DNA of 61,393 nucleotides, counting the filler. It is 6 parts of 6 records of this genome, joined end to end, with 100 filler letters (N's around TTAATTAATTAA, not from the genome) between each part and the next. Parts side by side here need not be neighbours in the genome. Positions count along the whole stretch, not along the records: positions 35,280 to 42,791 come from SRR31156797_18938; 5 more parts are not named here. One strand, 5' to 3'. Positions 3,133-51,407 of the stretch are shown in pieces; within the stretch, counting starts at the first letter, position 1, and each line of letters opens with the position of its first letter. Position numbers and translations under genes: made by a program. The notes under the pieces are model-generated. The model was not told the origin of the DNA. It saw only the letters and a list, made by a program, of their open reading frames with translations, and did no database searches.

Positions 3133-6100
3133 ATGAAACGAATTCTACTTCTAACTATTTTCACAATTCTCTTTTCAGGTTGGGTGTTTGGAACACATAC
3201 CCTCACTGATGGCGAGGTAATTGTTACTGGAGGATATATAACAAGTTGCTCATACGGCTTTGCTGACAAAAGTATTATAATTCCAGAAACGCTAGATGGA
3301 CAAACTGTAATTGGTATTGCAGATGCTCCATCTTCAATTTATGGTGTTTTTTACCGCGAAGGAATTACCTCGGTTCAATTACCTTCCACAATCGAATACA
3401 TTGGCACAAATGCCTTTCGCGATAATAACCTTACATCTTTAAATCTTAGTGCTTGTACATCTCTTAAAGAAATTGCACAATTTGCATTTTTCGACAATCA
3501 GATTACTAGTGTAAACATTACTGGATGCACTGCTTTAATGTTAATTACTGATGCTTTTGGAGCAAACTCTTCATTGTCAAGCTTCGCATTACCAACAAAT
3601 ACAATTTATGCTGCATACGGCTGGCGAGATGACAATGGAACGACATACAGTGGAGGTGACGCAGTAACAAACATGAGAGGCGTTTACAGAGTAGCTGCCC
3701 CCTACACTCTAACCGATGATGATGTTGTTGTTAATGCTGGTGTAATTGAAAGCTGCTCCTATCATTTCTTACTAGCCGATATTACAATCCCCGAAACATT
3801 AGATGGACAAATGGTAACAGGAATAGGAGATAGTGTTTTTATGGGAAGAGATATTTATTCTCTTGTTTTACCGACAACCCTTCAAACTATTGGAATTAAC
3901 GCATTTAGTGGCAATAGCTTTAATACAAATCTCTCTTCATGTACTTCTTTGGTATCAATTGGAGAATATGCTTTTTCCGGTAATGAATTAACCGGATTCA
4001 ATTTGTCAGAATTTCCACTACTTGCATCTATTGGTAAAGGCGCATTTAGAAACAATCAGCTAACCGCTGTCGATTTATCAGGTAACACCTTGATTACGTC
4101 TATTCCTGATGAGGTATTTGAATATAATGACATACAAAGTGTAAACCTAAGTGGTTGCAGTTCTTTGCTTCAAATTGGGTATCGGGCATTTTATGGAAAC
4201 GAGATATCAATTGCAAACCTAAACGGGTGTTCTTTAATGGAAAAAATTGGGGAAAACGCATTTGCAAATAATTCGTTTTCAAGCTTTACACTTCCTACAA
4301 ATACCACCCATGCCGCATTAGGCTGGAAAGATACTGATGGCAATTCATATACAGGCGGGCAAACTGTTAATGAACTATACACAATATACAGAATTCCAAT
4401 AACCTATACCCTTACTGATGCTGATGTTGAAGTAACAGCAGGAATTATTACCAGCAGTACAGGAGCTTATCCATATTCCGATATTATTATTCCATCTGCT
4501 CTTGATGGACAAACTGTAATTGGAACTGCAGATGCAACCAATGCTACTAGCGGAGTATTCTATGGTCAGGATATTACCTCCATACAGCTACCTTCAACAA
4601 TGCAAACCTTAGGCGATTATTCGTTTTATGATAATTTACTTGTTGATATTGACATAACCCATTGCACAAGCCTGATAAATATTGGCTACCGGGCATTTAG
4701 CAGCAACCCAACCAATGGCTTTACCTTACCAATTGTTTCAGGCTACGAACAATATGGCTGGAACGATGGAGATGGCAATTCATACATGGGAGGAGATTTT
4801 ATTACTGATGTAGACAACTATTACAAAGCTGGCATACCTTATACACTTACGGACGAAGATGTTGCCGTTCATAACGGAATTATCGATAGCTGCTATTACG
4901 ATTTTTCGCTTACCAACATAATTATTCCGGACACACTTGATGGTCAGGCAATAATTGGAATAGTAAAAAATGAAGATTACGATGTAGTTTTTGCCTATAA
5001 AAACATAACCTCAGTTCAATTGCCAACTACGCTCGAATTTATTGGCTATAGTGCTTTTTACGACAATAACTTACAAAGTATCGATTTATCGGTTTGTCCA
5101 TTGCTAGACTCAATAGGAGATTATGCTTTTGATAGTAATATATTAGACAGCATTGATTTATCCAATTCTTCTTTACTTCGTAGCATTGGAGAATATGCTT
5201 TTTCAGGCAACAATATATTTGATCTTGATTTTTCCGCTTGTTCAGCTTTAGAATTTATTGGATACGAAGCATTTTATGATAACGAATTTACTACTTTATC
5301 GTTTGCTGGTTGTACAGCATTAGAGATTATTGATGAATATGCTTTTTCCGATAATAGCAACCTATCTCAAATTGACTTAAGTGCATGTACATCTCTATAT
5401 TACATTGGAGAAGATGCCTTCAATTATGGTTCTCTTTCTTCTTTTGCTTTGCCAACCAATAGTATTTATTCTGCTTTAGGCTGGAGGGACGGAGATGGAA
5501 ATACCTATTCTGGGGGGGAAACTGTTACAGATATTGACACATACTACAAAATACCAATCCAATACACGTTAACAAATGATGATGTTATAGTGGAGAACGG
5601 AATAATTAAGAATTGTAGTTATCATTATGAGTTTACTGATATTATTATTCCTGAAACTTTAGATGGGCAAACCATTGTTGGTATTGCTGATACAACAAAC
5701 AGCTCTTATGGTGTTTTCGCATACTCTGGAATTACATCTGTACAATTTCCATCTTCTTTAGAATTTGTGGGAGCATATGCTTTTTACGATCATTCTATAA
5801 TCGGCTCTTTAGATTTTTCTACGTGCCCAAACTTAACTTCAATAAATAATCAAGCATTTTACTCCGGCAATATCAGTTTAGACAGCGTTAGTTTTTCCGG
5901 GTGCAGTAATATTTCTACAATTGGATCTCTTGCTTTTGGTTATAATTCGATAACAGGAGTTGATTTTTCAGGATGTACATCGCTTATTGAAATAGGTGAA
6001 TATGCTTTTCAATATAACGATATTATAAACTTGAACCTTACCGGCTGTTCTGCTTTAAAATCAATCAAAAAATATGCTTTTAGAAGCTCTAAAATGATTA

Positions 6101-6966
6101 CCCTCGACTTTACCGACTGTACATCGCTTTCTACTATCGGAGAATATGCTTTTGGGTACGTAACAACACTTTCCAGTGCAAACATAAACATGAGTGGCTG
6201 TACCTCACTTACACAAATTGGCTACAATGCATTTTACGGATCGTCAGGTGGTTTTGCTCTGCCAACTCCTGATATTACCGGTTACCTGCTAGATTATTGG
6301 CTGGCAGGAACGGGATTACATCACGAAGGAGGAGAAACAGTAACAAATACAAGTACCACGTATGTAGCTCAGCTTGTTTCTGCCTATACGGCTACATTCA
6401 ATGTTAGCGATGGCGTTTCACCAATTGAAAGTGTCACAATCGACCTAGATGGATACACTCCAAAAGTTACTGATATAAACGGGCAAGCCGTCTTTACGGT
6501 GGCAGTAGATGACTCTATTGCTTATACCGCTACTTCGAGCAACTATTTACCGGTTACTGATAGTATTTCGGTAACCGACACCGTTGTGATAGAAAATGTA
6601 ATTCTAACACCTTGCTACACTACATCTTTGCTTAACGAAACAATTTGTGAAGGAGAAAGCGTCAATGTGGGAGATTCAAGCTACTCTACATCAGGTACTT
6701 TTATTACAACTTTGGTTGGAGAAAACCAATATGGTTGCGACAGCATAGTTACCTTAAATCTCACAGTTAATCCTGTTAACAGCATTGATCTAACAGAATC
6801 AATCTGCGAAGGAGATGTATATTATGTTGGCGACTCAAGTTACTCCGAAACAGGAATATTTGTTACATCATTACAAAACCAGCTTGGTTGTGATAGTACT
6901 GTAAATCTTAATCTTACAGTGATCCCCAACGATTTCACCGAACTGAATGACACTATAGCCGGTGGC
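3133..6966 (+). CDS. Secreted BspA-type leucine-rich-repeat surface protein, 3'-truncated by the contig end
   Basis: Signal peptide and many LRR_5-type repeats (LxxIGxxAFxxNxLxxxxLxxC). Five modules each begin (H/Y)TLTx and contain IPxxLDGQ. C-terminal ICEG...GCDSxVxLNLTV repeats. Confidence 0.88.
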
Positions 6967-7066
6967 NNNNNNNNNNNNNNNNNNNNNNNNNNNNNNNNNN
7001 NNNNNNNNNNTTAATTAATTAANNNNNNNNNNNNNNNNNNNNNNNNNNNNNNNNNNNNNNNNNNNN
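6967..7066. other. Artificial contig spacer
   Basis: N44-TTAATTAATTAA-N44 (stops in all frames), with an abrupt composition change across it. Confidence 0.99.
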
Positions 7067-7280
7067 CCCCGGCACCGGCGATGCAGGCGACGACGGTGGC
7101 CGGAAAGGGATGGATGCCGTTGACGATCAACACGGCGGAAACGGCGGCGCCAAGCGGAAAGCTGCCGTCCACCGTCAGGTCCGGGAACTGCAGGACCCGA
7201 AACGAGATGTAAACACCGAGCGCGACGAGACCGAATATCAATCCGGTCTCGAGCGTGCCGAGAAAAGCAATCAGGCTCAC
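7067..7280 (-). CDS. ABC transporter permease, N-terminal part only
   Basis: GLIFGLVALGVYISFRVLQFPDLTVDGSFPLG motif. Lies directly downstream of the binding-protein gene. Confidence 0.88.
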
Positions 7281-7337
7281 GTAGCGTCCTTAATGTTGTT
7301 TGTTCTTGTTATTGTCCTTGCGATACCGCATCGGCGT

Positions 7338-17976: not shown

Positions 17977-18076
17977 NNNNNNNNNNNNNNNNNNNNNNNN
18001 NNNNNNNNNNNNNNNNNNNNTTAATTAATTAANNNNNNNNNNNNNNNNNNNNNNNNNNNNNNNNNNNNNNNNNNNN
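17977..18076. other. Artificial contig spacer
   Basis: N44-TTAATTAATTAA-N44. Confidence 0.99.
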
Positions 18077-35179: not shown

Positions 35180-35279
35180 NNNNNNNNNNNNNNNNNNNNN
35201 NNNNNNNNNNNNNNNNNNNNNNNTTAATTAATTAANNNNNNNNNNNNNNNNNNNNNNNNNNNNNNNNNNNNNNNNNNNN
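35180..35279. other. Artificial contig spacer
   Basis: N44-TTAATTAATTAA-N44. Confidence 0.99.
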
Positions 35280-35309
35280 TCGTAGGTTCGAATCCTGCCC
35301 CCGCTACCA
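35280..35309 (+). tRNA. 3' portion of a tRNA, probably initiator tRNA-Met; putative att core
   Basis: TCGTAGGTTCGAATCCTGCCCCCGCTACCA contains a T-arm, the acceptor strand CCCCGC and CCA, resembling tRNA-fMet. The anticodon is not in the window. Confidence 0.8.
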
Positions 35310-35315
35310 TAATAA

Positions 35316-35388
35316 TATCAAGGGTTTAGGGTGTTTCCTAAGCCCTTTTTTTACGCCTGTATTCATCCAGTGGTACAAGATTGGTACA
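35316..35388. promoter_or_regulatory. att-arm features: IHF site and arm-type direct repeats
   Basis: TATCAAGGGTTTA (35316-35328) matches WATCAANNNNTTR exactly. TGGTACA occurs at 35371 and 35382 (11-bp period). Confidence 0.6.
35320..35352 (+). terminator. Intrinsic terminator after the tRNA
   Basis: AAGGGTTTAGG-GTGTTT-CCTAAGCCCTT followed by TTTTT. Confidence 0.7.
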
Positions 35389-36531
35389 CCTTTTATCCAA
35401 TTTTTCTTGTTCCATAAGGGCTTTTGGACCGTTTTTCGGCGTTTCGGGATCCACATCCTTAATGTACCGCATGAACGCCTGACCATCCGAACGGGTCTCT
35501 CTCGGTATCCAAGCATAATACCGCTGAAAAATCATCTGCAGCGAGGAATGACCCATCATATTCTGCACCCATCCGACATCCTCGCCTGCTGAAAGCATCA
35601 TGGTCGCGAAGGTGTGTCGCGTTTGCAGGGGAGGGCGGTAATCAATGCCGGCCTTTTCGAGTGCAGGTGTCCACACCTCCTTGCGGATATGATCAGGTGT
35701 CATCCGTCTACCGTCAACGGTCAAAAAGATGTGTTTCTTGTCTCCGGTCAGTTTCCGCTGTTCGGCTAAAGCGTCAAGCACCTGCGGTAGACACTTGATG
35801 TAACGCTTTGATTTTTTAGTTTTTGGAACGCTGTCTTTTTTGTAAACATAGGTCTTATGGATGAAAATGTGTGGCTCCGGCTTCATGTCCTCCAAAAAAT
35901 CAGACCAACTCAAACCATTCATTTCGCCCGCCCGCATCCCGGTAAAAAAGGCAACAGTCACATAGGGACGATACCAGGAGGGGACTGTATCGAGGACCTG
36001 ATTGACTTCGTCGAAGGAGAAGGGACGGATTTCAGGGTCTTCCTCTTTCAGGCGTTTCAACTTGCGGAAAACATTGTCCTGGATAATCTCCTGTCGATGT
36101 GCGAACTCAAAAACAGATTTCATCGGTACCAAAATGTTGTTGGCCCTCTTTGACCCCACCTTTAAACGGCTCCTGAATTTGATTATATCGACATAGCTAA
36201 TTTCCGAGATCGGAATGTCCTTGAATATGGGGAGAATATGGCCATTCATTGCTGAAACATAATCCGGCCAGGTAGAATGCCGCACCTCAGTCTTGTGTAT
36301 GGGTGCCCACTCTTTTGCGACTTCGCCAAAGGTTATGGATTCTTGCTCATTTTGAGGAACATCGAGTTGTCCATACTCAGTCAGGTTGCCAAGGTAAAAA
36401 TTTCGAAGGTCCCTGGCTGTTTGTGTATCTGTGGTATTAAGTGACCGTTTGAACATTTTGCCGTTGTGCTTTTTACGGAAATAATAGATGTCTCCTCGTT
36501 TCTGTAGATATCTATCTTGTTTTTTTGCCAT
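35338..36531 (-). CDS. Tyrosine integrase
   Basis: FFTGMRAGE (R), PKTKKS (K), LQTRHTFAT, MMGHSS and RYY (Y). Start reassigned to 36531, overlapping the xis stop (TGATG). Confidence 0.93.
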   Translation of the reverse strand: MAKKQDRYLQKRGDIYYFRKKHNGKMFKRSLNTTDTQTARDLRNFYLGNLTEYGQLDVPQNEQESITFGEVAKEWAPIHKTEVRHSTWPDYVSAMNGHILPIFKDIPISEISYVDIIKFRSRLKVGSKRANNILVPMKSVFEFAHRQEIIQDNVFRKLKRLKEEDPEIRPFSFDEVNQVLDTVPSWYRPYVTVAFFTGMRAGEMNGLSWSDFLEDMKPEPHIFIHKTYVYKKDSVPKTKKSKRYIKCLPQVLDALAEQRKLTGDKKHIFLTVDGRRMTPDHIRKEVWTPALEKAGIDYRPPLQTRHTFATMMLSAGEDVGWVQNMMGHSSLQMIFQRYYAWIPRETRSDGQAFMRYIKDVDPETPKNGPKALMEQEKLDKRCTNLVPLDEYRRKKRA

Positions 36532-36812
36532 CAGCTTATTCTCCAGTCTTCGTTTGAAGACAGCCGAGGCTTTACCCGAATTTCCTTGCTTTTTCCTTTT
36601 TGTGGCTCCTTTCTCCAATGGGTGAATTTATTCTGAAATTCTTCAATCTCCCGACGATAATACAACACGCGATCTGAGCCGGGGGCAACAAAAAAACTGA
36701 GCAGCCCGCGTTTTCGCCAGTTTTTAATCGTATTGCTTGATACTCGAAAATGCCTGGCGACTTCCTGCTGTGTCCACAACTCTTTATTCCACATATTTCC
36801 CGGTCTGTCCAT
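36531..36812 (-). CDS. Excisionase-like winged-HTH protein (HTH_17/MerR-like)
   Basis: LWTQQEVARHFRVSSNTIKNWRKRGLL...RVLYYRREIEEF. Coupled to int. Confidence 0.85.
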   Translation of the reverse strand: MDRPGNMWNKELWTQQEVARHFRVSSNTIKNWRKRGLLSFFVAPGSDRVLYYRREIEEFQNKFTHWRKEPQKGKSKEIRVKPRLSSNEDWRIS

Positions 36813-36844
36813 TCGTTGATCTACTGATTATCGCAGGTATATTT

Positions 36845-37084
36845 TTATCGCTTACATACGCAGTTACATCTTAAAATTTTATCTGTGATTGGTTCCCCGT
36901 TCACATGGATGTCTAAATTGTTGATGTCGACGCCCATGACGTCTTTGGCGAAGCTGCGGACGGTGAGTCCGGAGGTGGCGGCCATGGAGATCATCGAGGT
37001 GGAACCGGGCTTGTAGTTTACCTGAATAGCTGCGGGCATCCGACTTCCTCCTTGTAGAGAATGAAAAGGGCCACAATCGACCAT
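36845..37084 (-). CDS. Small protein resembling a C-terminally truncated ubiquitin-like (ThiS/MoaD beta-grasp) fold
   Basis: IQVNY..SMISM..GLTVRSFAKDVMG..LDIHVNGEP pattern. Strong RBSs precede both ATG 37084 (GGAGGAGG) and ATG 37039 (AAGGAGG). Confidence 0.5.
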   Translation of the reverse strand: MVDCGPFHSLQGGSRMPAAIQVNYKPGSTSMISMAATSGLTVRSFAKDVMGVDINNLDIHVNGEPITDKILRCNCVCKR

Positions 37085-37207
37085 TGATTAATGCCTCCTC
37101 CCGCCAGGCTAAAAAGGGTATTCCACACATTCGGTAGACGAATGGATTAAAGATTTGACAAGTTGGAACTCAGAGCACCCATAGGTAACCAGAAAATCAC
37201 AGATACA

Positions 37208-37549
37208 TTACCAAGGTATTGGGTGGCGTCCAGTTAGTACCTGAAGGAAGAGTCTGCCACCTCTATTTTCAGGCGTGTCATATTCCGCGATCACCTCCAG
37301 CGCGCGATCTCGACTGTCTCCTTGTGGTATACGTGTAGCAATCGCTATAGCGGGCTCGAGATTCAAAAAATAGTGGAGCATCGGACGCCCCGTATAAGGG
37401 CTAATACCGTCTTCGACTATATAGTCGTTTCCTTCCTCAAGTTTCAGTGACCTTATGTTGGCCCTCATCCACGTCGAAAATAGAGTTGGGATGTAGGCCT
37501 TTTCATGGATTTTTATCGCCGGTACTGGAAAAATTGTAAAATCACTCAT
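37208..37549 (-). CDS. AntA/AntB-type antirepressor-like protein
   Basis: IH....TLFSTWMRANIRSLKLEEGNDY...GRPMLHYFLNLEPA fits the AntA pattern F.xW...I....F.E..DY...GRP...Y.L....A. Confidence 0.7.
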   Translation of the reverse strand: MSDFTIFPVPAIKIHEKAYIPTLFSTWMRANIRSLKLEEGNDYIVEDGISPYTGRPMLHYFLNLEPAIAIATRIPQGDSRDRALEVIAEYDTPENRGGRLFLQVLTGRHPIPW

Positions 37550-37577
37550 GAAATATACCTTTGTTGTCTAAAAAGTA

Positions 37578-37748
37578 TTGGAACTTGGCTGTGATACGTC
37601 TCTTAAAAAGGAAATGAGATCGATTCTTTCAACATCAAACTGGTTGGCCTGCCTACAACAGGATAACGAAAAGTTACCAACCAAAGCGCAGGGACTAAGC
37701 TGTTTACTCGGTCCCTGCACTTCATATTAGGACACACGGCAAGTTCAA
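37578..37748 (-). ncRNA. Candidate multi-stem structured RNA upstream of the antirepressor
   Basis: Nested stems: GAACTTG/CAAGTTC closing stem, a 12-bp stem (37684-37722), and a three-way junction TGGTTGG/CCAACCA (37641-37683). G-U pairs favour the minus strand. Confidence 0.5.
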
Positions 37749-37775
37749 AAATAGGTGTGAGAAAACCTGCCAATC

Positions 37776-38276
37776 CTACAGATCCCAGAACTGTTCAAAA
37801 TAGTCGATATTCATGTCGGTAGTGCCTAGTTCCTCAAAAAAGGGCTTGACCATGTGGTATCTGAAATAAGGCGCCTCTTTTTTGCTCAAGTGCATCGCCT
37901 TATCCAGGTTAAAAGGCCCCTCACCCTCTACCGGTAATAGAAGAGCCGTCCCAACAGTTGAACCCAGTTCGAAAGAAAGAGGAACTCCTGAAACGGCGAC
38001 CATTTCGGCAAAGGGTTCCATGGTTCCGTTTGCATATTCTTGCCAGCTTTCTACCAGACCCATTGGGCAGGGCATTGTTTTTTCAAAGGCATCTGCACCC
38101 CAGAACTTCGAATTTTGCGGATTTACTAGCATGGCAATTGGCTTCCCGAGACGGGTAATGACCACTGCCCTCGGAAAATTGCGCATGGTGCATTCAAGTG
38201 CTGAGTAACCGAGTTCGAAGCGGTCATCAATAACCAAAACTTTGCCATCAATCTTGTATTCCTTGCGTTTAAACAT
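37776..38276 (-). CDS. Hypothetical protein with a Phd/YefM-like motif
   Basis: AVVITRLGKPIAMLV. AAGGAG precedes ATG 38276; overlaps the upstream Phd gene stop. Confidence 0.6.
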   Translation of the reverse strand: MFKRKEYKIDGKVLVIDDRFELGYSALECTMRNFPRAVVITRLGKPIAMLVNPQNSKFWGADAFEKTMPCPMGLVESWQEYANGTMEPFAEMVAVSGVPLSFELGSTVGTALLLPVEGEGPFNLDKAMHLSKKEAPYFRYHMVKPFFEELGTTDMNIDYFEQFWDL

Positions 38277-38526
38277 TAAATACTCCTTTCTCTTCGTCTG
38301 GTGTAGAATCCGCACTATCTTCACAAGTAAAAATCACAGCTTCATCTCTCTGATGTTCAGCATCCGCCGCTGGTTTGATGATAGCGATTGGTCTGCCTCT
38401 GTTGGTTACAAGAACGCTTTTTTTCTCCTGTTTAACGAAGTTCAGAATCTTGGAAACTGACCAGCAAAACTTCGTAACAGACACAGTTATCGGGTTGGGA
38501 CCGACAGCTTTAGACTCTTTACTCAT
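38269..38526 (-). CDS. Phd/YefM-family antitoxin-like protein
   Basis: TVSVTKF...SKILNFV....SVLVTNRGRPIAIIKP with an acidic tail. GGAGGAG RBS. Confidence 0.8.
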   Translation of the reverse strand: MSKESKAVGPNPITVSVTKFCWSVSKILNFVKQEKKSVLVTNRGRPIAIIKPAADAEHQRDEAVIFTCEDSADSTPDEEKGVFNV

Positions 38527-38870
38527 AACCTCTACTCCTCCTGTACTATTGTGTAAATTTGAGCAGTGAACACAGTAGACTATATTTATCTACCTACATC
38601 TTAATAAATTATGGTAAGAAATCAGTAAGAAGTGAAGTAATTAAATGAAAAAAATTCATATAAAACCAAGTAAATAGGAGTTTTAAGGTATCGATTAATT
38701 ACGAGGTGCAATCCAATCCATTTCCCATGTGAGGAACGTGGGTTCTAAGGACTTGATAACGGCAAAGAAGAAGGAAAGGATCTGAGCAAAAAAGCAGTTT
38801 TGTGCATTTACAGATACACTGTTTTTTGACCAACAGGCTCATGCCCGTCGTATCAATCACAGCAATTTTC

Positions 38871-39152
38871 TCAGTTAGACAACTTCGCAAGCAATTCCCG
38901 GCTATCGTTAAGCAGTTTCCGAATTCTTCTTCGTTCGGTTTTCATTTTGGCAGTGTGAAAACCACTTTTTAAGGAATTGGTATTGCCGAGAGGTGGGCCT
39001 GAGCCAGGTGCTCCGCCGTGGATGAAGCAACGTTTCTTACCTGGTTCTGGCAGGTTTTGGCATATGGTGCCATCGATACGGTTTTTTGCTCCGCAAATGA
39101 TTTCGCCACCGGCGACAGAGAAATCAGCCTTGATATTAGGTAGATATTCCAA
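38871..39152 (-). CDS. HGGxSTG-domain protein
   Basis: CGAKNR..G..CQN......RCFIHGG..GSGPPLGNTNSLKSG. Confidence 0.8.
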   Translation of the reverse strand: MEYLPNIKADFSVAGGEIICGAKNRIDGTICQNLPEPGKKRCFIHGGAPGSGPPLGNTNSLKSGFHTAKMKTERRRIRKLLNDSRELLAKLSN

Positions 39153-39157
39153 TTTTG

Positions 39158-39709
39158 CTACACCCCGTCCCTATTTGGCTGAGTGACATTTCCTATAATA
39201 GCTTGGCCACCTTCGTTGTTCAGATGGACGTGATGTACGTTGATCGTCTGCTGCCCTTTTTGCCGCATACGACGAAGTGTTTCGGCCTGTGCTGTGAACA
39301 CTCGTGCCAATTTCATAGCGATATTGATGTAATTTTTCTGGATCTCCGCCATGGGTGTGTTGGCTGCCCGGGCAAGGAGGCCCATGAGCTGCGTGTGGAT
39401 GGCTACCATCTGCGTGGCCAATAGCGCTTCCGTTGCATTGGTAGGTTTTTGCTCCGCCAGCGCAGCCAATGCTGCATTAATAAGTGGTGCTGACCCTTCC
39501 TTTGGTGGTCCGAAGGCATTGACGAGTTGATCGACTAAAACTATGGATAGTTCCCGGCTTTGAGTCCCAGTGGCGGCCATCGCAGATGAAATAAAATCTT
39601 CGGGTTCGTTGTATTCTCCCGAGTCAGGTGAGAGAGAGCCATCAGCAACCTCGATTTTGGGCGACGGGGTATGAGTATCTGTTTTCGCATCTACTAAAGA
39701 CGTGTTCAT
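39158..39709 (-). CDS. Hypothetical protein of a type I recall lying upstream of HGGxSTG genes in integrative elements
   Basis: P....EALLATQMVAIH...KLAR.F..Q.ETL.R.R.KGQQ.I.V.HVH...GGQAIIGNV. GGAG RBS. Confidence 0.75.
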   Translation of the reverse strand: MNTSLVDAKTDTHTPSPKIEVADGSLSPDSGEYNEPEDFISSAMAATGTQSRELSIVLVDQLVNAFGPPKEGSAPLINAALAALAEQKPTNATEALLATQMVAIHTQLMGLLARAANTPMAEIQKNYINIAMKLARVFTAQAETLRRMRQKGQQTINVHHVHLNNEGGQAIIGNVTQPNRDGV

Positions 39710-39808
39710 ATGATCTCCATTGGTATTAAGCGATTGTCATCCAATTGCGTGAGCGGGATCTCCTCCCCTCGCACTCGCTACATCATGATCAATAAAGAGG
39801 GTGGGGAT

Positions 39809-39976
39809 TGTCCTATCATGTCCTATTTACTGTCCTATTTAGATAAACTATAACTATCTGAAATTGTTATAGATGACCTAATTGTCCTATTTGTCCTAAG
39901 AAAATAGAATTTTGTAAAAATTTTTTATTGTAAGAAAAAAGCCTCCAAAAACCGGTCAAACGGGGCAATTAGGGCA
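39809..39976. repeat. Iteron array, putative replication origin
   Basis: TG(T/A)CCTA at 39809, 39819, 39831, 39874, 39883 and 39892, flanking an AT-rich IHF-like core (TAACTATCTGAAA, 39851). Inverted variant TAGGGCA at 39970. Immediately 3' of the helicase gene. Confidence 0.75.
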
Positions 39977-39998
39977 AGCCCCAGGAATTATTGTATAT

Positions 39999-41486
39999 TT
40001 ACGTGTCCCAATTGATTTCCATCTTGACCTGTTCTTGGAATAATTCCCTGCACCGTTGTAAAGTTGGGAGCTGATATTCGTATCTTTCCTTATCTTCACT
40101 TGTTCTACGCCGGACCCTTTTAATTTCAGGACACAGCTTTTTTAGTTCTTTCCCCACGGTTTTGTCAGAAGGAGGATATTTATAAAACATGCGCCGGCAA
40201 AATTCAGTCACCTCTTCATTGAACTCAATCACTGAAACGACCTCAGGCCAGTCACTCTTGTTGACAATGCAATCATGATAAAAGAGGTCCTTCATATCTA
40301 TGTTTGGGGAGGTAAGAGTAAAAAACACTCCCAAACGCAGTTTTTCAAACCAGAACCTACCGAAAGGACTCAACGAATTTTCGATTTGGTCGAGCAAGGC
40401 GTCCGTCCTCGGAATATTTCGAAGATTTATCCCCGACAAATCCATGTTCAGCAAATCATAAACCATGCCCTCAAGACCACCGTTTTGCATCTGATCATGA
40501 ATTGCACCGAAATACTCATGATCTCCCTTTTTCTTTTCTGAGACGTCAACTACGGCAAATCGCCGTTCGTCCAACCCAGCGGGGACAACCCAGTCGTTAT
40601 TCGAAGCTAGAAGAATACGAACGCAATTTTTAACGTGGAATCCATTAATCCCCTTAGATTCTACAAAGATCGTGGGCTCTGTAATCATACTCTTGAGCTT
40701 TCCTTCAGCGGTTTTGTCTCCTCCCCAGACCGCCTCGTCGGCAAAAACCAAGATGGCGTCTTTCAAGTGGTGATTAAAACGCCCGGTAAGGGACTCAGAA
40801 CTGGATAATGCCAAATAATGCTGACCAAATGGTTGGCCTGCATAGTTGACTGCAGTTCCTTTGCCGGAGCCTTGGCCTCCACGAAGGGCGATTGCCGTTC
40901 CCGGACGTGGTCCGCCTGGATTCTGGTAGGCATCTGCCAGCCAACCGAGGATATATTCTTCAACCTGAGAGTCACCACTGGCGACAACTTCAAAGATTAA
41001 ATTTCTGTAAAGGCTCCAATCACCAGGCTTCGGAGTCACCGCTAAACCTTTATATAAATTAAAATACCCCGGATGGTTGCCGGATGGATCAAAGACAACG
41101 CCATCATATTGCCTCCTATCTTTGGAACCAAGCCAGATATCGGCTACTTTGACTGGTTTCGGTTTAATCGGGTCTCCAGAAAAAACGGTGAGGTTGCTAT
41201 ACCTATGCTTAAAATCGGAGATCGAAGAGAACGTCGTACTCATCCTATTTTGGACTGGGTCGAATTCTTCATTTAGCACGGCTGTTTTTCCCTCCAAAAC
41301 TACAACAGCGTGCTTTATATTTAACTTCTCAAGAGTACTTTCTATGTCATCTGGATCGAACTCAACCTTTATCGGCTCAGACTTTGAAGCTTCAAAGCTA
41401 TTCTTTTCAGGTTCTGTGTTTTCTTCTCGAGCCGTGTCATTGACTAGCGCCTGGAGAGTTTCCAACGTAGAAGAGTTTTCGGACAT
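39999..41486 (-). CDS. Primase-associated SF3-type helicase (DUF5906 / NrS-1-like)
   Basis: F.P.....FNLYKG, Walker A GGQGSGKG, Walker B LVFADE, LKSMITE, ASN and DERRF. Confidence 0.87.
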   Translation of the reverse strand: MSENSSTLETLQALVNDTAREENTEPEKNSFEASKSEPIKVEFDPDDIESTLEKLNIKHAVVVLEGKTAVLNEEFDPVQNRMSTTFSSISDFKHRYSNLTVFSGDPIKPKPVKVADIWLGSKDRRQYDGVVFDPSGNHPGYFNLYKGLAVTPKPGDWSLYRNLIFEVVASGDSQVEEYILGWLADAYQNPGGPRPGTAIALRGGQGSGKGTAVNYAGQPFGQHYLALSSSESLTGRFNHHLKDAILVFADEAVWGGDKTAEGKLKSMITEPTIFVESKGINGFHVKNCVRILLASNNDWVVPAGLDERRFAVVDVSEKKKGDHEYFGAIHDQMQNGGLEGMVYDLLNMDLSGINLRNIPRTDALLDQIENSLSPFGRFWFEKLRLGVFFTLTSPNIDMKDLFYHDCIVNKSDWPEVVSVIEFNEEVTEFCRRMFYKYPPSDKTVGKELKKLCPEIKRVRRRTSEDKERYEYQLPTLQRCRELFQEQVKMEINWDT

Positions 41487-41568
41487 GGCAGCTTTTTCTC
41501 ACTTTCGGTAAAAAGAAACATTTTGGCAGCAGGGGAACTATTGCGCTCCCCTGCCGGGGGTGCGTCAA

Positions 41569-41929
41569 CTATTGAACATGCGCAGACCTGATCTTGGACA
41601 GAGCATCTCGCAACCGGAACCTTGAGCACGAGTCATGGAAGCATTTAAACCCCGTCCCACCTGTCTTCGTATTTACTATGAAGCCGCTCTGTCTGTGGGT
41701 CGGGTTAAAGGGACACTGATATAACTCATAGATCCGTGAACCCGGTTTCCGCTTTATTCGGTACTGGATGCCATGCTCTTCCAGAAAGGCCTTTATGCTG
41801 TCTGCATCCGCATCAGAGCCCCTCCAGGGGGACGTATTAGTAGAAGTAGTAGGTTGGCCGCTGACAGGGCGAGTATCTCGCACGAGCGCTGCTAGTTTTT
41901 CAAGTGTGGTTCCGCAGGCCACGTTGTTA
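41569..41929 (-). CDS. Putative primase zinc-binding domain (separate GTG start at 41922 or frameshift continuation)
   Basis: FLEEHGI...CPFNPTH...FKCFHDSC Cys/His cluster, in the +1 frame relative to the primase ORF. Confidence 0.65.
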
Positions 41930-42664
41930 TTTGGCCTCTCCGAGCGAATCGATGTAACTCCAACGGTGGGGGCGTCGTATGCGGTTTTTCCCACCAGGGA
42001 CCGGATCGCCTTTACAGGCTTTAGAACCATAAAATTTGGTAATCCTCCCCGGGTTGAAAACGCTAGTGTCGACCTTGACGTACTCGTTCGAAAATTTGTG
42101 ATCTAGATTGATCAGGGTGTTTTTTATCGTCTCTTGAACTTTTTCATCCTGGGCCGGTAGATTAGCCAGCGGGAACAACGCATGCGATCCATTCCCACTC
42201 ATACAAGTGACTGGTGGAGACATCCCGTATTTTTCTACGCAGAATTCAGAAATTTCATCTCTCTTCTGCATTGCCATCGATAGCTCTTCATCTGATGAAG
42301 AGACACCAGATGGGCGAACGGGGTCAATGTCAACCAGTAACCAACGATAAAACAAAACGTCGGCGTCACTCACTGTAGAGTTTGCCGCCTTCAATCGATT
42401 AAAGGCGCGTCCAAGCAAATCTGGGTTAATTACCTGCAGGCTCATGTAGATTTGGATTTTCTCTATCTTGATCAACGGTTCCACCGATTTATTAAAATCG
42501 TCGAAATTGTCGAAGTACCCCACTACAGTCCCTCGTGCGAAATCTTCCCAGACTCCAGCCATCGTTCCCCATGCATTGAGGGCTCGAACCTCTACGATCT
42601 CCCCGGCATCTGTATTAACAAACAGTCCGAAAACTTCTCTGTCAAACATCGTAAGCTGTTGCAT
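41927..42664 (-). CDS. AEP-like primase catalytic domain
   Basis: VEVRAL, WLLVDIDPVRPSG (DxD), SGNGSH, VDTSVFNPGRITKFYG and RPHR. AGGAG RBS. Confidence 0.75.
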   Translation of the reverse strand: MQQLTMFDREVFGLFVNTDAGEIVEVRALNAWGTMAGVWEDFARGTVVGYFDNFDDFNKSVEPLIKIEKIQIYMSLQVINPDLLGRAFNRLKAANSTVSDADVLFYRWLLVDIDPVRPSGVSSSDEELSMAMQKRDEISEFCVEKYGMSPPVTCMSGNGSHALFPLANLPAQDEKVQETIKNTLINLDHKFSNEYVKVDTSVFNPGRITKFYGSKACKGDPVPGGKNRIRRPHRWSYIDSLGEAK

Positions 42665-42791
42665 CTTAAAGATCTCCTATATATAAAGGTAAAAATGAGT
42701 AGCTGGAGGCGAAGTTCTTCCCCCAGTTAATTGTAAGAAATTACCGATCCCGACGACGTCTGAAGACGAACAAAGTAGTCACACCTGGATT

Positions 42792-42891
42792 NNNNNNNNN
42801 NNNNNNNNNNNNNNNNNNNNNNNNNNNNNNNNNNNTTAATTAATTAANNNNNNNNNNNNNNNNNNNNNNNNNNNNNNNNNNNNNNNNNNNN
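42792..42891. other. Artificial contig spacer
   Basis: N44-TTAATTAATTAA-N44. Confidence 0.99.
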
Positions 42892-51307: not shown

Positions 51308-51407
51308 NNNNNNNNNNNNNNNNNNNNNNNNNNNNNNNNNNNNNNNNNNNNTTAATTAATTAANNNNNNNNNNNNNNNNNNNNNNNNNNNNNNNNNNNNN
51401 NNNNNNN
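51308..51407. other. Artificial contig spacer
   Basis: N44-TTAATTAATTAA-N44. Confidence 0.99.

Follow-up and report, generated by a model that had tools for sequence, protein, structure and literature searches.

We found that a 7512-bp metagenome contig, which corresponds exactly and in full to positions 35280-42791 of the window (the whole 61,393-nt stretch of DNA analyzed here), appears to represent most or all of a compact, integrative and self-replicating 'hitcher' island in a Desulfosarcina-like bacterium. The island would be helper-dependent and of the same kind as the PICI, PICMI and PICI-like tycheposon satellites, a reading to which we assign a probability of about 0.5. An integrase, an excisionase (Xis), a primase-helicase system and an iteron origin are all present in the visible 7.5 kb, in agreement with a first-pass annotation of the sequence that had described a self-replicating integrative element. 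That annotation had also recognized no capsid, terminase or conjugation genes, and among the 12 open reading frames (ORFs) we likewise found no capsid, tail, lysis, large-terminase or full-terminase, relaxase, or secretion/conjugation gene using Pfam, PHROGs, NCBIfam and PADLOC. Because it has no capsid or transfer genes, the element probably rides on a helper. The features that carry this reading are as follows.

42665..42791, minus strand: leader upstream of the primase gene, 127 nt, reaching the contig end without an attachment-site (att) repeat
41927-42664, minus strand: prim245, predicted AEP-superfamily primase-polymerase domain protein (AlphaFold2, Foldseek and motifs)
41569-42030, minus strand: zn153, zinc-binding linker module (motif C-x5-H...C-x-H-x2-C, conserved from about residue 43)
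39999-41486, minus strand: hel495, superfamily 3 (SF3) helicase, DUF5906, C-terminal part of a primase-helicase (PF19263, E 8e-23)
39710..39998, minus strand: predicted origin region, a 289-nt gap after the helicase gene, GC 0.37, with five exact TAGGACA iterons and one degenerate copy
39158-39709, minus strand: orf183, uncharacterized helical protein, directly upstream of HGG93
38871-39152, minus strand: HGG93, HGGxSTG-domain protein (NF041373, 37.1 bits, cutoff 29)
37208-37549, minus strand: AntA113, antirepressor N-terminal domain only, 113 amino acids (aa) (PF08346, E 6e-7, 30.4 bits, cutoff 27)
36531..36812, minus strand: xis93, Xis/AlpA-class HTH_17 protein (PF12728, 32.8 bits, cutoff 27)
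35338..36618, minus strand: int426, tyrosine integrase; ORF from TTG 36618, likely start ATG 36531
35320..35347, plus strand: hairpin resembling a terminator, immediately behind the tRNA end and overlapping the stop of int (consensus scan)
35280..35309, plus strand: 3′ end of an initiator-type tRNA-Met(CAT), 30 nt comprising T arm, acceptor strand and CCA; the contig begins inside it

The 30 nt at the start of the contig were identical to the 3′ end of the full tRNA-Met(CAT) of Desulfosarcina widdelii (locus L165) and constituted the single match to the tRNA 3′ end within the window, in which neither ARAGORN nor Rfam called a tRNA anywhere. The D. widdelii tRNA has GGG/CCC in its anticodon stem and an unpaired 1:72 position, which we take to be initiator features. 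The tRNA-fMet identity proposed in the first-pass annotation was therefore right, but what the contig contains is no more than a 3′ fragment, at its edge. Similarly, its statement that everything lay on one strand held for all 12 ORFs, each of which is on the minus strand, but not for the tRNA fragment, which is on the plus strand and convergent with the integrase gene. The contig was present in a single public sequencing run, a DNA run that may be its source, and no RNA run was listed as containing it. Three other Logan contigs from this run shared only the 30 tRNA nt and then diverged, so that position 35280 is to be regarded as an assembly break. The 30-nt tRNA end is presumed to be the att core. 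When its last 25 nt were used as a query against three Desulfobacterales genomes, two exact matches were recovered in D. widdelii and one-mismatch matches in two metagenome-assembled genomes (MAGs), with full tRNA-Met(CAT) genes at three of the four places. The fourth place, in D. widdelii (L163/L165), was a 47-nt copy of the tRNA 3′ end, located about 88 kb from the full gene and in the same orientation; the repeat shows that this site is in use for att, and the pair suggests that a large island has integrated at the same position.

Both the integrase and the excisionase named in the first-pass annotation were recovered by domain searches. The integrase matched Phage_integrase (PF00589, E 1e-18), Phage_int_SAM_3 (E 3e-12) and phrog_1 (E 2e-64), while xis93 matched, besides HTH_17, the excisionase/regulator phrog_66 (E 1e-10) and PADLOC mad1 (E 3e-10). 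The xis93 TGA and the int ATG share one base (TGATG), and int is predicted to be translationally coupled to the HTH_17 Xis. In a Desulfobacterales MAG (L254, 16462-17192), a xis at 75% aa identity and an int, also 75% identical but without residues 101-340, abutted tRNA-fMet, within a patch of about 0.8 kb at 0.46 GC in a genome of 0.55-0.6 GC. Judged from these genomic positions, the integrase-xis unit appears to be specific for tRNA-fMet.

The primase, zinc domain and helicase of the first-pass annotation were each substantiated, by AEP fold and motifs, by a conserved C/H motif and by the DUF5906 match, respectively. The first of these, prim245, had no Pfam or NCBIfam match, and a PDB profile search with the primase alignment returned nothing better than E 0.88. 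Matches at E ≤ 1e-3 were found in 6726 library proteins, often at the N-terminus of proteins of 700-950 aa, and three such long proteins that were scanned contained DUF3987, DUF5906/D5_N or DUF927 helicase domains. With the AlphaFold2 model (pLDDT 96.6), all 10 Foldseek matches in the PDB at E ≤ 1e-3 were AEP enzymes, namely Pri1 of yeast and human and the polymerase domain of LigD, with probabilities of 0.99-1.00 and modest TM scores of 0.35-0.45; RepB' was just below the E threshold. In an alignment of 20 sequences, D112 and S156-G-N-G-x-H161 were invariant and D114 nearly so (DxD, SGNGxH). By its modeled fold and its DxD/SxH motifs, prim245 is thus a predicted member of the AEP superfamily.

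No family match was found for zn153, in Pfam even at E ≤ 10, although its CPFNPTH...KCFHDSC corresponds to CLFDPSH...KCFHDSC in an 842-aa fusion protein (L010). The helicase also matched phrog_1156 (E 3e-45) and TIGR01613 (E 6e-7). In sequence order, prim245, zn153 and hel495 aligned to residues 24-248, 257-362 and 406-830 of the L010 protein, and the same three-way split was present in L001, a locus in an uncultured Desulfosarcina MAG. Since it is colinear with the L010 fusion and kept in L001, we consider the split to be real and not a sequencing error.

The iterons noted in the first-pass annotation were confirmed in the gap behind the helicase gene. Five of the window's six exact copies of TAGGACA lie in 90 nt of this gap (39809-39898), all on the minus strand, with 3.4 expected in the whole window. 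In L001 and in two marine metagenome contigs (L082 and L083), this gap held the same ATAGGACA iterons, together with inverted copies on the far side of an AT-rich spacer, whereas L019, in which the helicase is only 41% identical, had different repeats in the corresponding gap. Because ATAGGACA was kept in the former loci and changed in L019, the iteron origin appears to be matched to its helicase, and there is good evidence that 39710-39998 is a replication origin. Int and Xis would excise the element as a circle, on which the SF3 helicase would bind the iterons and melt the origin, and the AEP primase would start synthesis. For the GC-rich sequence preceding orf183, a consensus fold was computed over four elements; it had an energy of -1.1 kcal/mol on a poor alignment, and we claim no structure there.

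Relatives, host and limits of the island

In a helicase profile scan with one genome per species, from which 80 of 262 relatives were retained, the whole module was found only in L001. The order there was a Phd-like 62-aa gene, a 136-aa ORF, prim, zn, hel, orf183, HGG, AntA, an unrelated integrase and a convergent tRNA-Glu, such that the co-oriented gene order noted in the first-pass annotation was conserved. Identities to L001 were 61% for prim, 47% for zn, 56% for hel, 66% for orf183, 55% for HGG and 35% for AntA. In L082 and L083, a PAS protein and host-like genes came after hel, orf183, HGG and AntA, without an integrase on that side. The AntA homologues of L001, L082 and L083, all placed as in the element, were 35-37% identical to its protein. 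L019 encoded a fused primase-helicase, orf177 and HGG85, then a tRNA-Lys and then a glycosyltransferase. As far as these arrangements indicate, the replication-orf183-HGG-AntA block moves between different integrases. The host is probably an uncultured relative of Desulfosarcina (Desulfobacterales), because the closest relatives of the element came from Desulfosarcina and Desulfobacterales MAGs.

The contig could instead be a fragment of a larger prophage, integrative and conjugative element or composite island in which the assembly broke, an explanation that we consider improbable. Both contig ends are assembly breaks, one at the tRNA branch point and the other at a position that a 986-nt Logan contig overruns by 152 nt (past 42791). 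The second tRNA 3′ repeat sought on the suggestion of the first-pass annotation was absent from the contig, as were any terminal or direct repeats marking att sites between 35280 and 42791. Further, upstream of its primase L001 has the Phd-like gene and the 136-aa ORF and, beyond these, RVT_1, Rad52/22, PD-(D/E)XK, AAA and DUF2201 genes. Set against a fragment is the low GC of L001, which was confined to about 8.0-13 kb and was again 0.50-0.55 on the left, with the genes beyond RVT_1 at host-like GC. Likewise, the 10 kb to each side of the L001 module were free of capsid, tail, terminase and conjugation genes, the L019 module ended at its tRNA-Lys and was followed by a glycosyltransferase, and read depth in one sequencing run was even (14-20x) along the element contig.

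Several of the observations on boundaries do count against the island proposed here. Its far end was not seen; no tRNA-Glu repeat was present in the L001 locus or its 111-kb contig; and no joints between element ends, or other evidence of a circle, were seen among the contigs of one DNA run, where the circular attP junctions mentioned in the first-pass annotation had been sought. The missing L001 repeat is also what would be seen if such islands were decaying remnants that are no longer mobile, as is the reduction of the Desulfobacterales MAG relative at tRNA-fMet to xis and a truncated int. We regard a remnant as very improbable, since all of the named ORFs of the element are intact, and since the module persists at 47-66% aa identity (AntA 35%), with conserved iterons, across different integrases and tRNAs. 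In addition, contigs from the same run matched the element up to 35867 and 38861 and then diverged. The sample thus contains several variants or recombinants of the element side by side, as would suit a population that is alive and recombining.

Two further observations were made in the L001 MAG. At the left island edge of L001, a 494-aa reverse-transcriptase (RVT_1) gene (5832-7316), with at least 12 identical or near-identical copies in the MAG, is probably a group II intron; this left-flank gene was tried as an empty-site probe and dropped, as it is multicopy. On another contig of the same MAG (L255), two 47-nt tRNA-Glu 3′ fragments were located at 2853 and 11221. The 8.4 kb separating them had a distant integrase as the only one, and the 14 kb of sequence retrieved contained no full tRNA. 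This pair was rejected as the boundary of the L001 island, as it bounds an unrelated island or a tandem array.

The orf183-HGGxSTG pair and the question of a helper

The two genes after the origin were listed in the first-pass annotation as a hypothetical gene and an HGGxSTG gene, and the NF041373 match (37.1 bits versus a cutoff of 29) bore this out. HGG93 combines a CCCH zinc ribbon with a GNxNxxKxG motif and a single helix, and the family alignment had C20, C31, C42 and H45 invariant in 21 sequences. For orf183, 23 relatives were found in a word-indexed protein search, none of them annotated, and at least 447 in a metagenome scan; in the ESM Atlas, only unnamed 'hypothetical protein' clusters were recovered. 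The AlphaFold2 model of orf183 (pLDDT 84) comprised a beta hairpin, three helices and a long helical hairpin, with the most conserved stretch being a disordered C-terminal tail. Foldseek returned no match for this fold at E ≤ 1e-3 in the PDB or BFVD, and VIA-align returned generic helical hairpins only (Z about 10, residues 90-155). A literature search on 'HGGxSTG' found no paper using the domain name.

We examined 83 orf183 loci, of which 72 had at least 330 bp downstream and could be tested for a partner. An ORF with a C...C...C-x2-H-G/A motif was located from -150 to +700 bp of orf183 in 68 of these 72, often with overlapping stop and start codons. By this measure of synteny, orf183 and HGGxSTG appear to be a near-obligate adjacent pair. 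The pair was often followed by an integrase and then a tRNA, for example in L104 and L125, and the L125 island had only a 66-aa gene, orf183, HGG and int. The first-pass annotation had suggested clustering the elements that share the pair and this primase; L001 carries both, but the pair also occurs beside many other replication genes and on plasmids. In L151 (10861-13825), the integrase is separated from the HGGxSTG gene by two genes with ABC-3C CTD10 domains, one of which has DUF2326 as well; they are candidate defense cargo.

Comparison with phage proteins connected the HGGxSTG domain to terminases. Among the 21 HGG family members, 18 matched phrog_1889, 13 phrog_9231, six phrog_10899 and five phrog_509, all four of which are annotated as small terminase. 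For HGG93 itself, the phrog_1889 match (E 6e-4) was confined to positions 69-119 of a 276-position profile. A typical HGG member recovered seven phage records by tblastn, and in Ralstonia phage Hyacinthe and Pasteurella phage Pm86 the match was to the N-terminus of genes of 184 and 196 residues, respectively, that abut terL. An hhalign comparison of HGG with the N-terminus of the Hyacinthe terL-adjacent gene gave a probability of 98.3 (E 1e-14, residues 2-54). These alignments point clearly to homology between the HGGxSTG domain and the N-terminus of terL-adjacent phage genes.

Transfer of the element out of the cell would depend on a helper, and a phage seems the likeliest, because proteins in the terminase position have the HGGxSTG domain in common with the element and because the AntA-type domain is conserved. 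HGG93 with orf183 would mark element DNA for the helper terminase, or would interfere with the terminase. The P4 epsilon protein acts on the P2 repressor, and the AntA-domain protein could act on a repressor in the same manner; the antirepressor of the first-pass annotation stood, through PF08346, and phrog_5817 (anti-repressor Ant) also matched (E 1e-4). Two of the remaining genes, phd85 and orf182, may form a maintenance or cargo module. We also entertained a bolder proposal, that orf183-HGGxSTG is a two-protein DNA-recognition module passing the DNA of capsid-less islands and plasmids to a helper-phage terminase, with carriers of the pair constituting a large hidden class of phage-packaged hitchers and the element being a minimal satellite among them. 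As a whole, this seems to us quite unlikely.

Several results weigh against dependence on phages. The homology of HGG93 spans only about 50 residues of small-terminase-type proteins that are 184-276 residues long, and orf183 had no similarity to terL-adjacent phage proteins and no match in 50,697 phage records. A single-protein helicase scan of IMG/VR returned nothing, and in the IMG/VR profile scan none of the 80 helicase-relative loci had orf183, HGG or prim245. The only IMG/VR contig with the pair (L081) placed it beside a cI-like HTH gene, YqaJ and ERF, far from the DUF5681-TerL genes of that phage. At the same time, orf183 matched in 15 plasmid records, among them Methylobacterium plasmid pC, which carries the pair with a 4-nt overlap and in RefSeq under the name 'HGGxSTG domain-containing protein'. 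Finally, fusions of orf183 to Rep in three loci (L114 scanned; L110 and L158 by length) suggest a role in replication.

These results are the basis of the principal alternative, namely an integrative, plasmid-like element that is independent of phages and spreads via a conjugative helper, via vesicles or vertically, in which orf183 and HGGxSTG would be replication, partition or regulatory DNA-binding proteins. In 7 of the 13 loci that were scanned with Pfam, a replication-type gene preceded the pair at a distance of 0-2 genes: RepO in L104, Prim-Pol/AAA_25 in L151, Prim-Pol/PriCT_1 in L137, ResIII helicases in L100 and L142 (the latter with Toprim/DnaB-like), and a YagK/Rep domain fused to orf183 in L114. 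L110 and L158, both outside the Pfam scan, had 380-aa ORFs of the same length as the L114 fusion. In view of the plasmid records, the fusions to Rep and how silent the phage collections were, we retain this alternative as a possible, though less likely, one. On the other side, library scans identified no relaxase, coupling protein or partition gene among the ORFs of the contig, phage genes next to terL clearly begin with a homologue of the HGGxSTG domain, the AntA antirepressor-type domain is conserved in the family, and in L137 an SU10-type major capsid gene lies one gene after the pair. The helper-dependent satellite island is our preferred reading.

Comparison with known satellites

Satellite memberships were judged from published descriptions, in the parts of those sources available to us, and the SatelliteFinder and PICMI profile sets or tycheposon profiles could change the calls. 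The PICMI model requires an integrase (PF00589, PF00239 or PF07508), an AlpA (PF05930 or PF12728), a DUF3987/DUF5906 primase and a fis site (PMC10803314). Three of these four mandatory markers were found in the element, namely int, a regulator of the HTH_17/AlpA class and the DUF5906 primase; the fis site is the one on which it departs, as PICMI are described downstream of fis in Vibrionaceae, whereas the element is at tRNA-fMet and has its relatives in Desulfobacterales MAGs. The two are alike in their very small size, with PICMI115 having 6,110 bp and the genes int, iolg, alpA, up1, prim and up2 (PMC10803314) and the element at least 7.5 kb. They are also alike in that a small gene overlaps int, by 1-13 nt in PICMI and by 1 nt (xis) in the element, as well as in having no capsid-remodeling or structural genes and in their marine settings. 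The element differs in having its primase divided among three genes, one of them for the AEP domain alone, and the orf183-HGGxSTG pair and the AntA gene are not mentioned for PICMI in the portions of the description that we drew on.

PICI are described as having five core components, comprising an integrase, a regulator (alpA/merR/stl), a primase-replicase, a capsid morphogenesis gene and a small terminase, with a median size of 9.5 kb, and Type B PICI are those without the capsid-morphogenesis gene (PMC10085698). The integrase, regulator and primase-replicase are present in the element according to Pfam and PHROGs, not SatelliteFinder profiles, and its 12 ORFs had no head or capsid match in Pfam and PHROGs, on a contig that may be incomplete. 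With HGG93 as a possible small terminase, three or four of the five components would be represented. On the available description the element resembles Type B PICI in its integrase, its alpA/merR-class regulator, its primase-replicase with an adjacent origin and its size, as well as in having a small terminase-related gene after the origin and no other structural or lysis genes. It differs in that the terS-related gene is a 93-aa homologue of the N-terminal domain only, and in a gene order that runs from prim to int, with int last beside att and all ORFs co-oriented.

The PICI-like tycheposons combine a tRNA-integrated tyrosine recombinase and xis with a primase/helicase and either terS or a major capsid protein, use tRNA-Met(CAT) among other sites, measure 10-20 kb and are also reported in other marine bacterial groups, while tycheposons as such are defined in Prochlorococcus by a specific integrase clade (bioRxiv 10.1101/2020.12.28.424599). 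By its gene content and tRNA site, the architecture of the element fits this partial account (int and xis at a tRNA, a replication module and a terS-related gene), but the contig is 7.5 kb, compared with their 10-20 kb.

Similarities to P4 are the integrase at a tRNA, an AlpA-class gene and a primase-helicase (alpha) with an origin; epsilon, moreover, acts on a helper repressor, and AntA113 could be its analogue. The element differs from P4 in that its helicase is in the DUF5906 branch, with the TIGR01613 'P4 family' model scoring 28.7 bits against a cutoff of 108.7. P4-like satellites have seven components, including the psu-delta-sid capsid-hijack operon, in the sections of the source that we used (PMC10085698), and no homologues of psu, delta or sid were found in the element with Pfam, PHROGs or NCBIfam. 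Overall, and within the limits of these descriptions, the element works like PICMI, PICI and tycheposons and is a member of none of them as defined. The suggestion in the first-pass annotation of an undescribed satellite family was overstated, as the gene set fits the published accounts of these three groups.

If the reading is correct, minimal PICMI/PICI-like satellites extend to the sulfate-reducing Desulfobacterales of marine sediments; no satellites of Desulfobacterales turned up in the literature searched, which included no search aimed at satellites in Desulfobacterota. The element also offers a defined and testable replication system, comprising a split AEP primase, a zinc module, an SF3 helicase and a conserved ATAGGACA iteron origin. 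In itself the element is a modest addition, and the pair with its terminase link is the more interesting lead. The pair may matter more than the element, being near-obligate, unnamed, widespread on integrative elements and plasmids, and connected by homology to the small terminase subunit. Were it a packaging module, this would concern hundreds of tRNA-linked islands and plasmids with the pair across Desulfobacterota and Pseudomonadota, with at least 447 metagenome matches.

Other genes and contig context

The remaining features of the element lie between HGG93 and xis93 and are as follows.

38269-38526, minus strand: phd85, borderline Phd/YefM-like small protein (TIGR01552, 21.6 bits versus a cutoff of 20.8)
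37776..38324, minus strand: orf182, with a motif-level Phd-like N-terminus only and no family match
About 37550-37780 (231 nt), minus strand: folded stretch between orf182 and AntA, of which 37550..37775 (226 nt) is intergenic, with thermodynamic support only
36845..37084, minus strand: orf79, overlapped in another frame by an alternative 83-aa ORF

The Phd gene of the first-pass annotation was borderline, being above the TIGR01552 cutoff and below that of PF02604 (20.8 bits, cutoff 29.8). Its 'Phd-like' neighbor, orf182, which is downstream of phd85, had no match in any library, including no toxin-family match in Pfam, PHROGs, NCBIfam or PADLOC. There was no BLAST alignment of orf182 to phd85, the comparison with the 136-aa ORF of L001 gave E 0.25, and the ESM Atlas held no usable match. 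The proposed 'Ubl-like' gene (orf79) was without library support, with nothing in Pfam at E ≤ 10, PHROGs or NCBIfam and one weak PADLOC match (E 0.0036), and the alternative 83-aa ORF over it had nothing meaningful in Pfam at E ≤ 10.

Part of the claim of a structured RNA held, in that the minimum free energy of the 37550-37780 fold was -68.8 kcal/mol, while shuffles averaged -51.5 (z -4.43), and 0 of 200 shuffles were as good. However, the stretch belonged to no Rfam family and was absent from L001, in which the HGG-AntA spacing is 33 nt. Rfam returned nothing relevant at gathering thresholds or at E ≤ 1, the sole match being mir-22 (E 0.72), and promoter and terminator scans did not exceed shuffles (9 terminator-like sites versus 7.5 expected). 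The PADLOC scan yielded mad1 for xis and two weak matches only, and no defense system. A gap of about 340 nt between HGG93 and phd85 (38527-38870) had a 63-aa ORF as its sole content, for which there was nothing meaningful in Pfam even at E ≤ 10 and no match in any library.

The window consists of six joined contigs, with ten runs of 44 N flanking TTAATTAATTAA linkers; the spacers are at 6967-7066, 17977-18076, 35180-35279, 42792-42891 and 51308-51407. Because these contigs are unlinked, genes that flank the element in the window are not its physical neighbors, and any cross-contig 'context' within it is artificial. GC was 0.40-0.48 in the element contig, about 0.60-0.65 in the contig to its left, and spanned 0.31 to 0.65 over the six contigs, with levels of about 0.35, about 0.6, 0.45 and 0.33 among them, in a bin that may mix organisms. 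The flanking genes, on the other contigs, were ordinary chromosomal ones, encoding a LysR regulator, an EamA transporter, a pseudouridine synthase and a sulfate permease.

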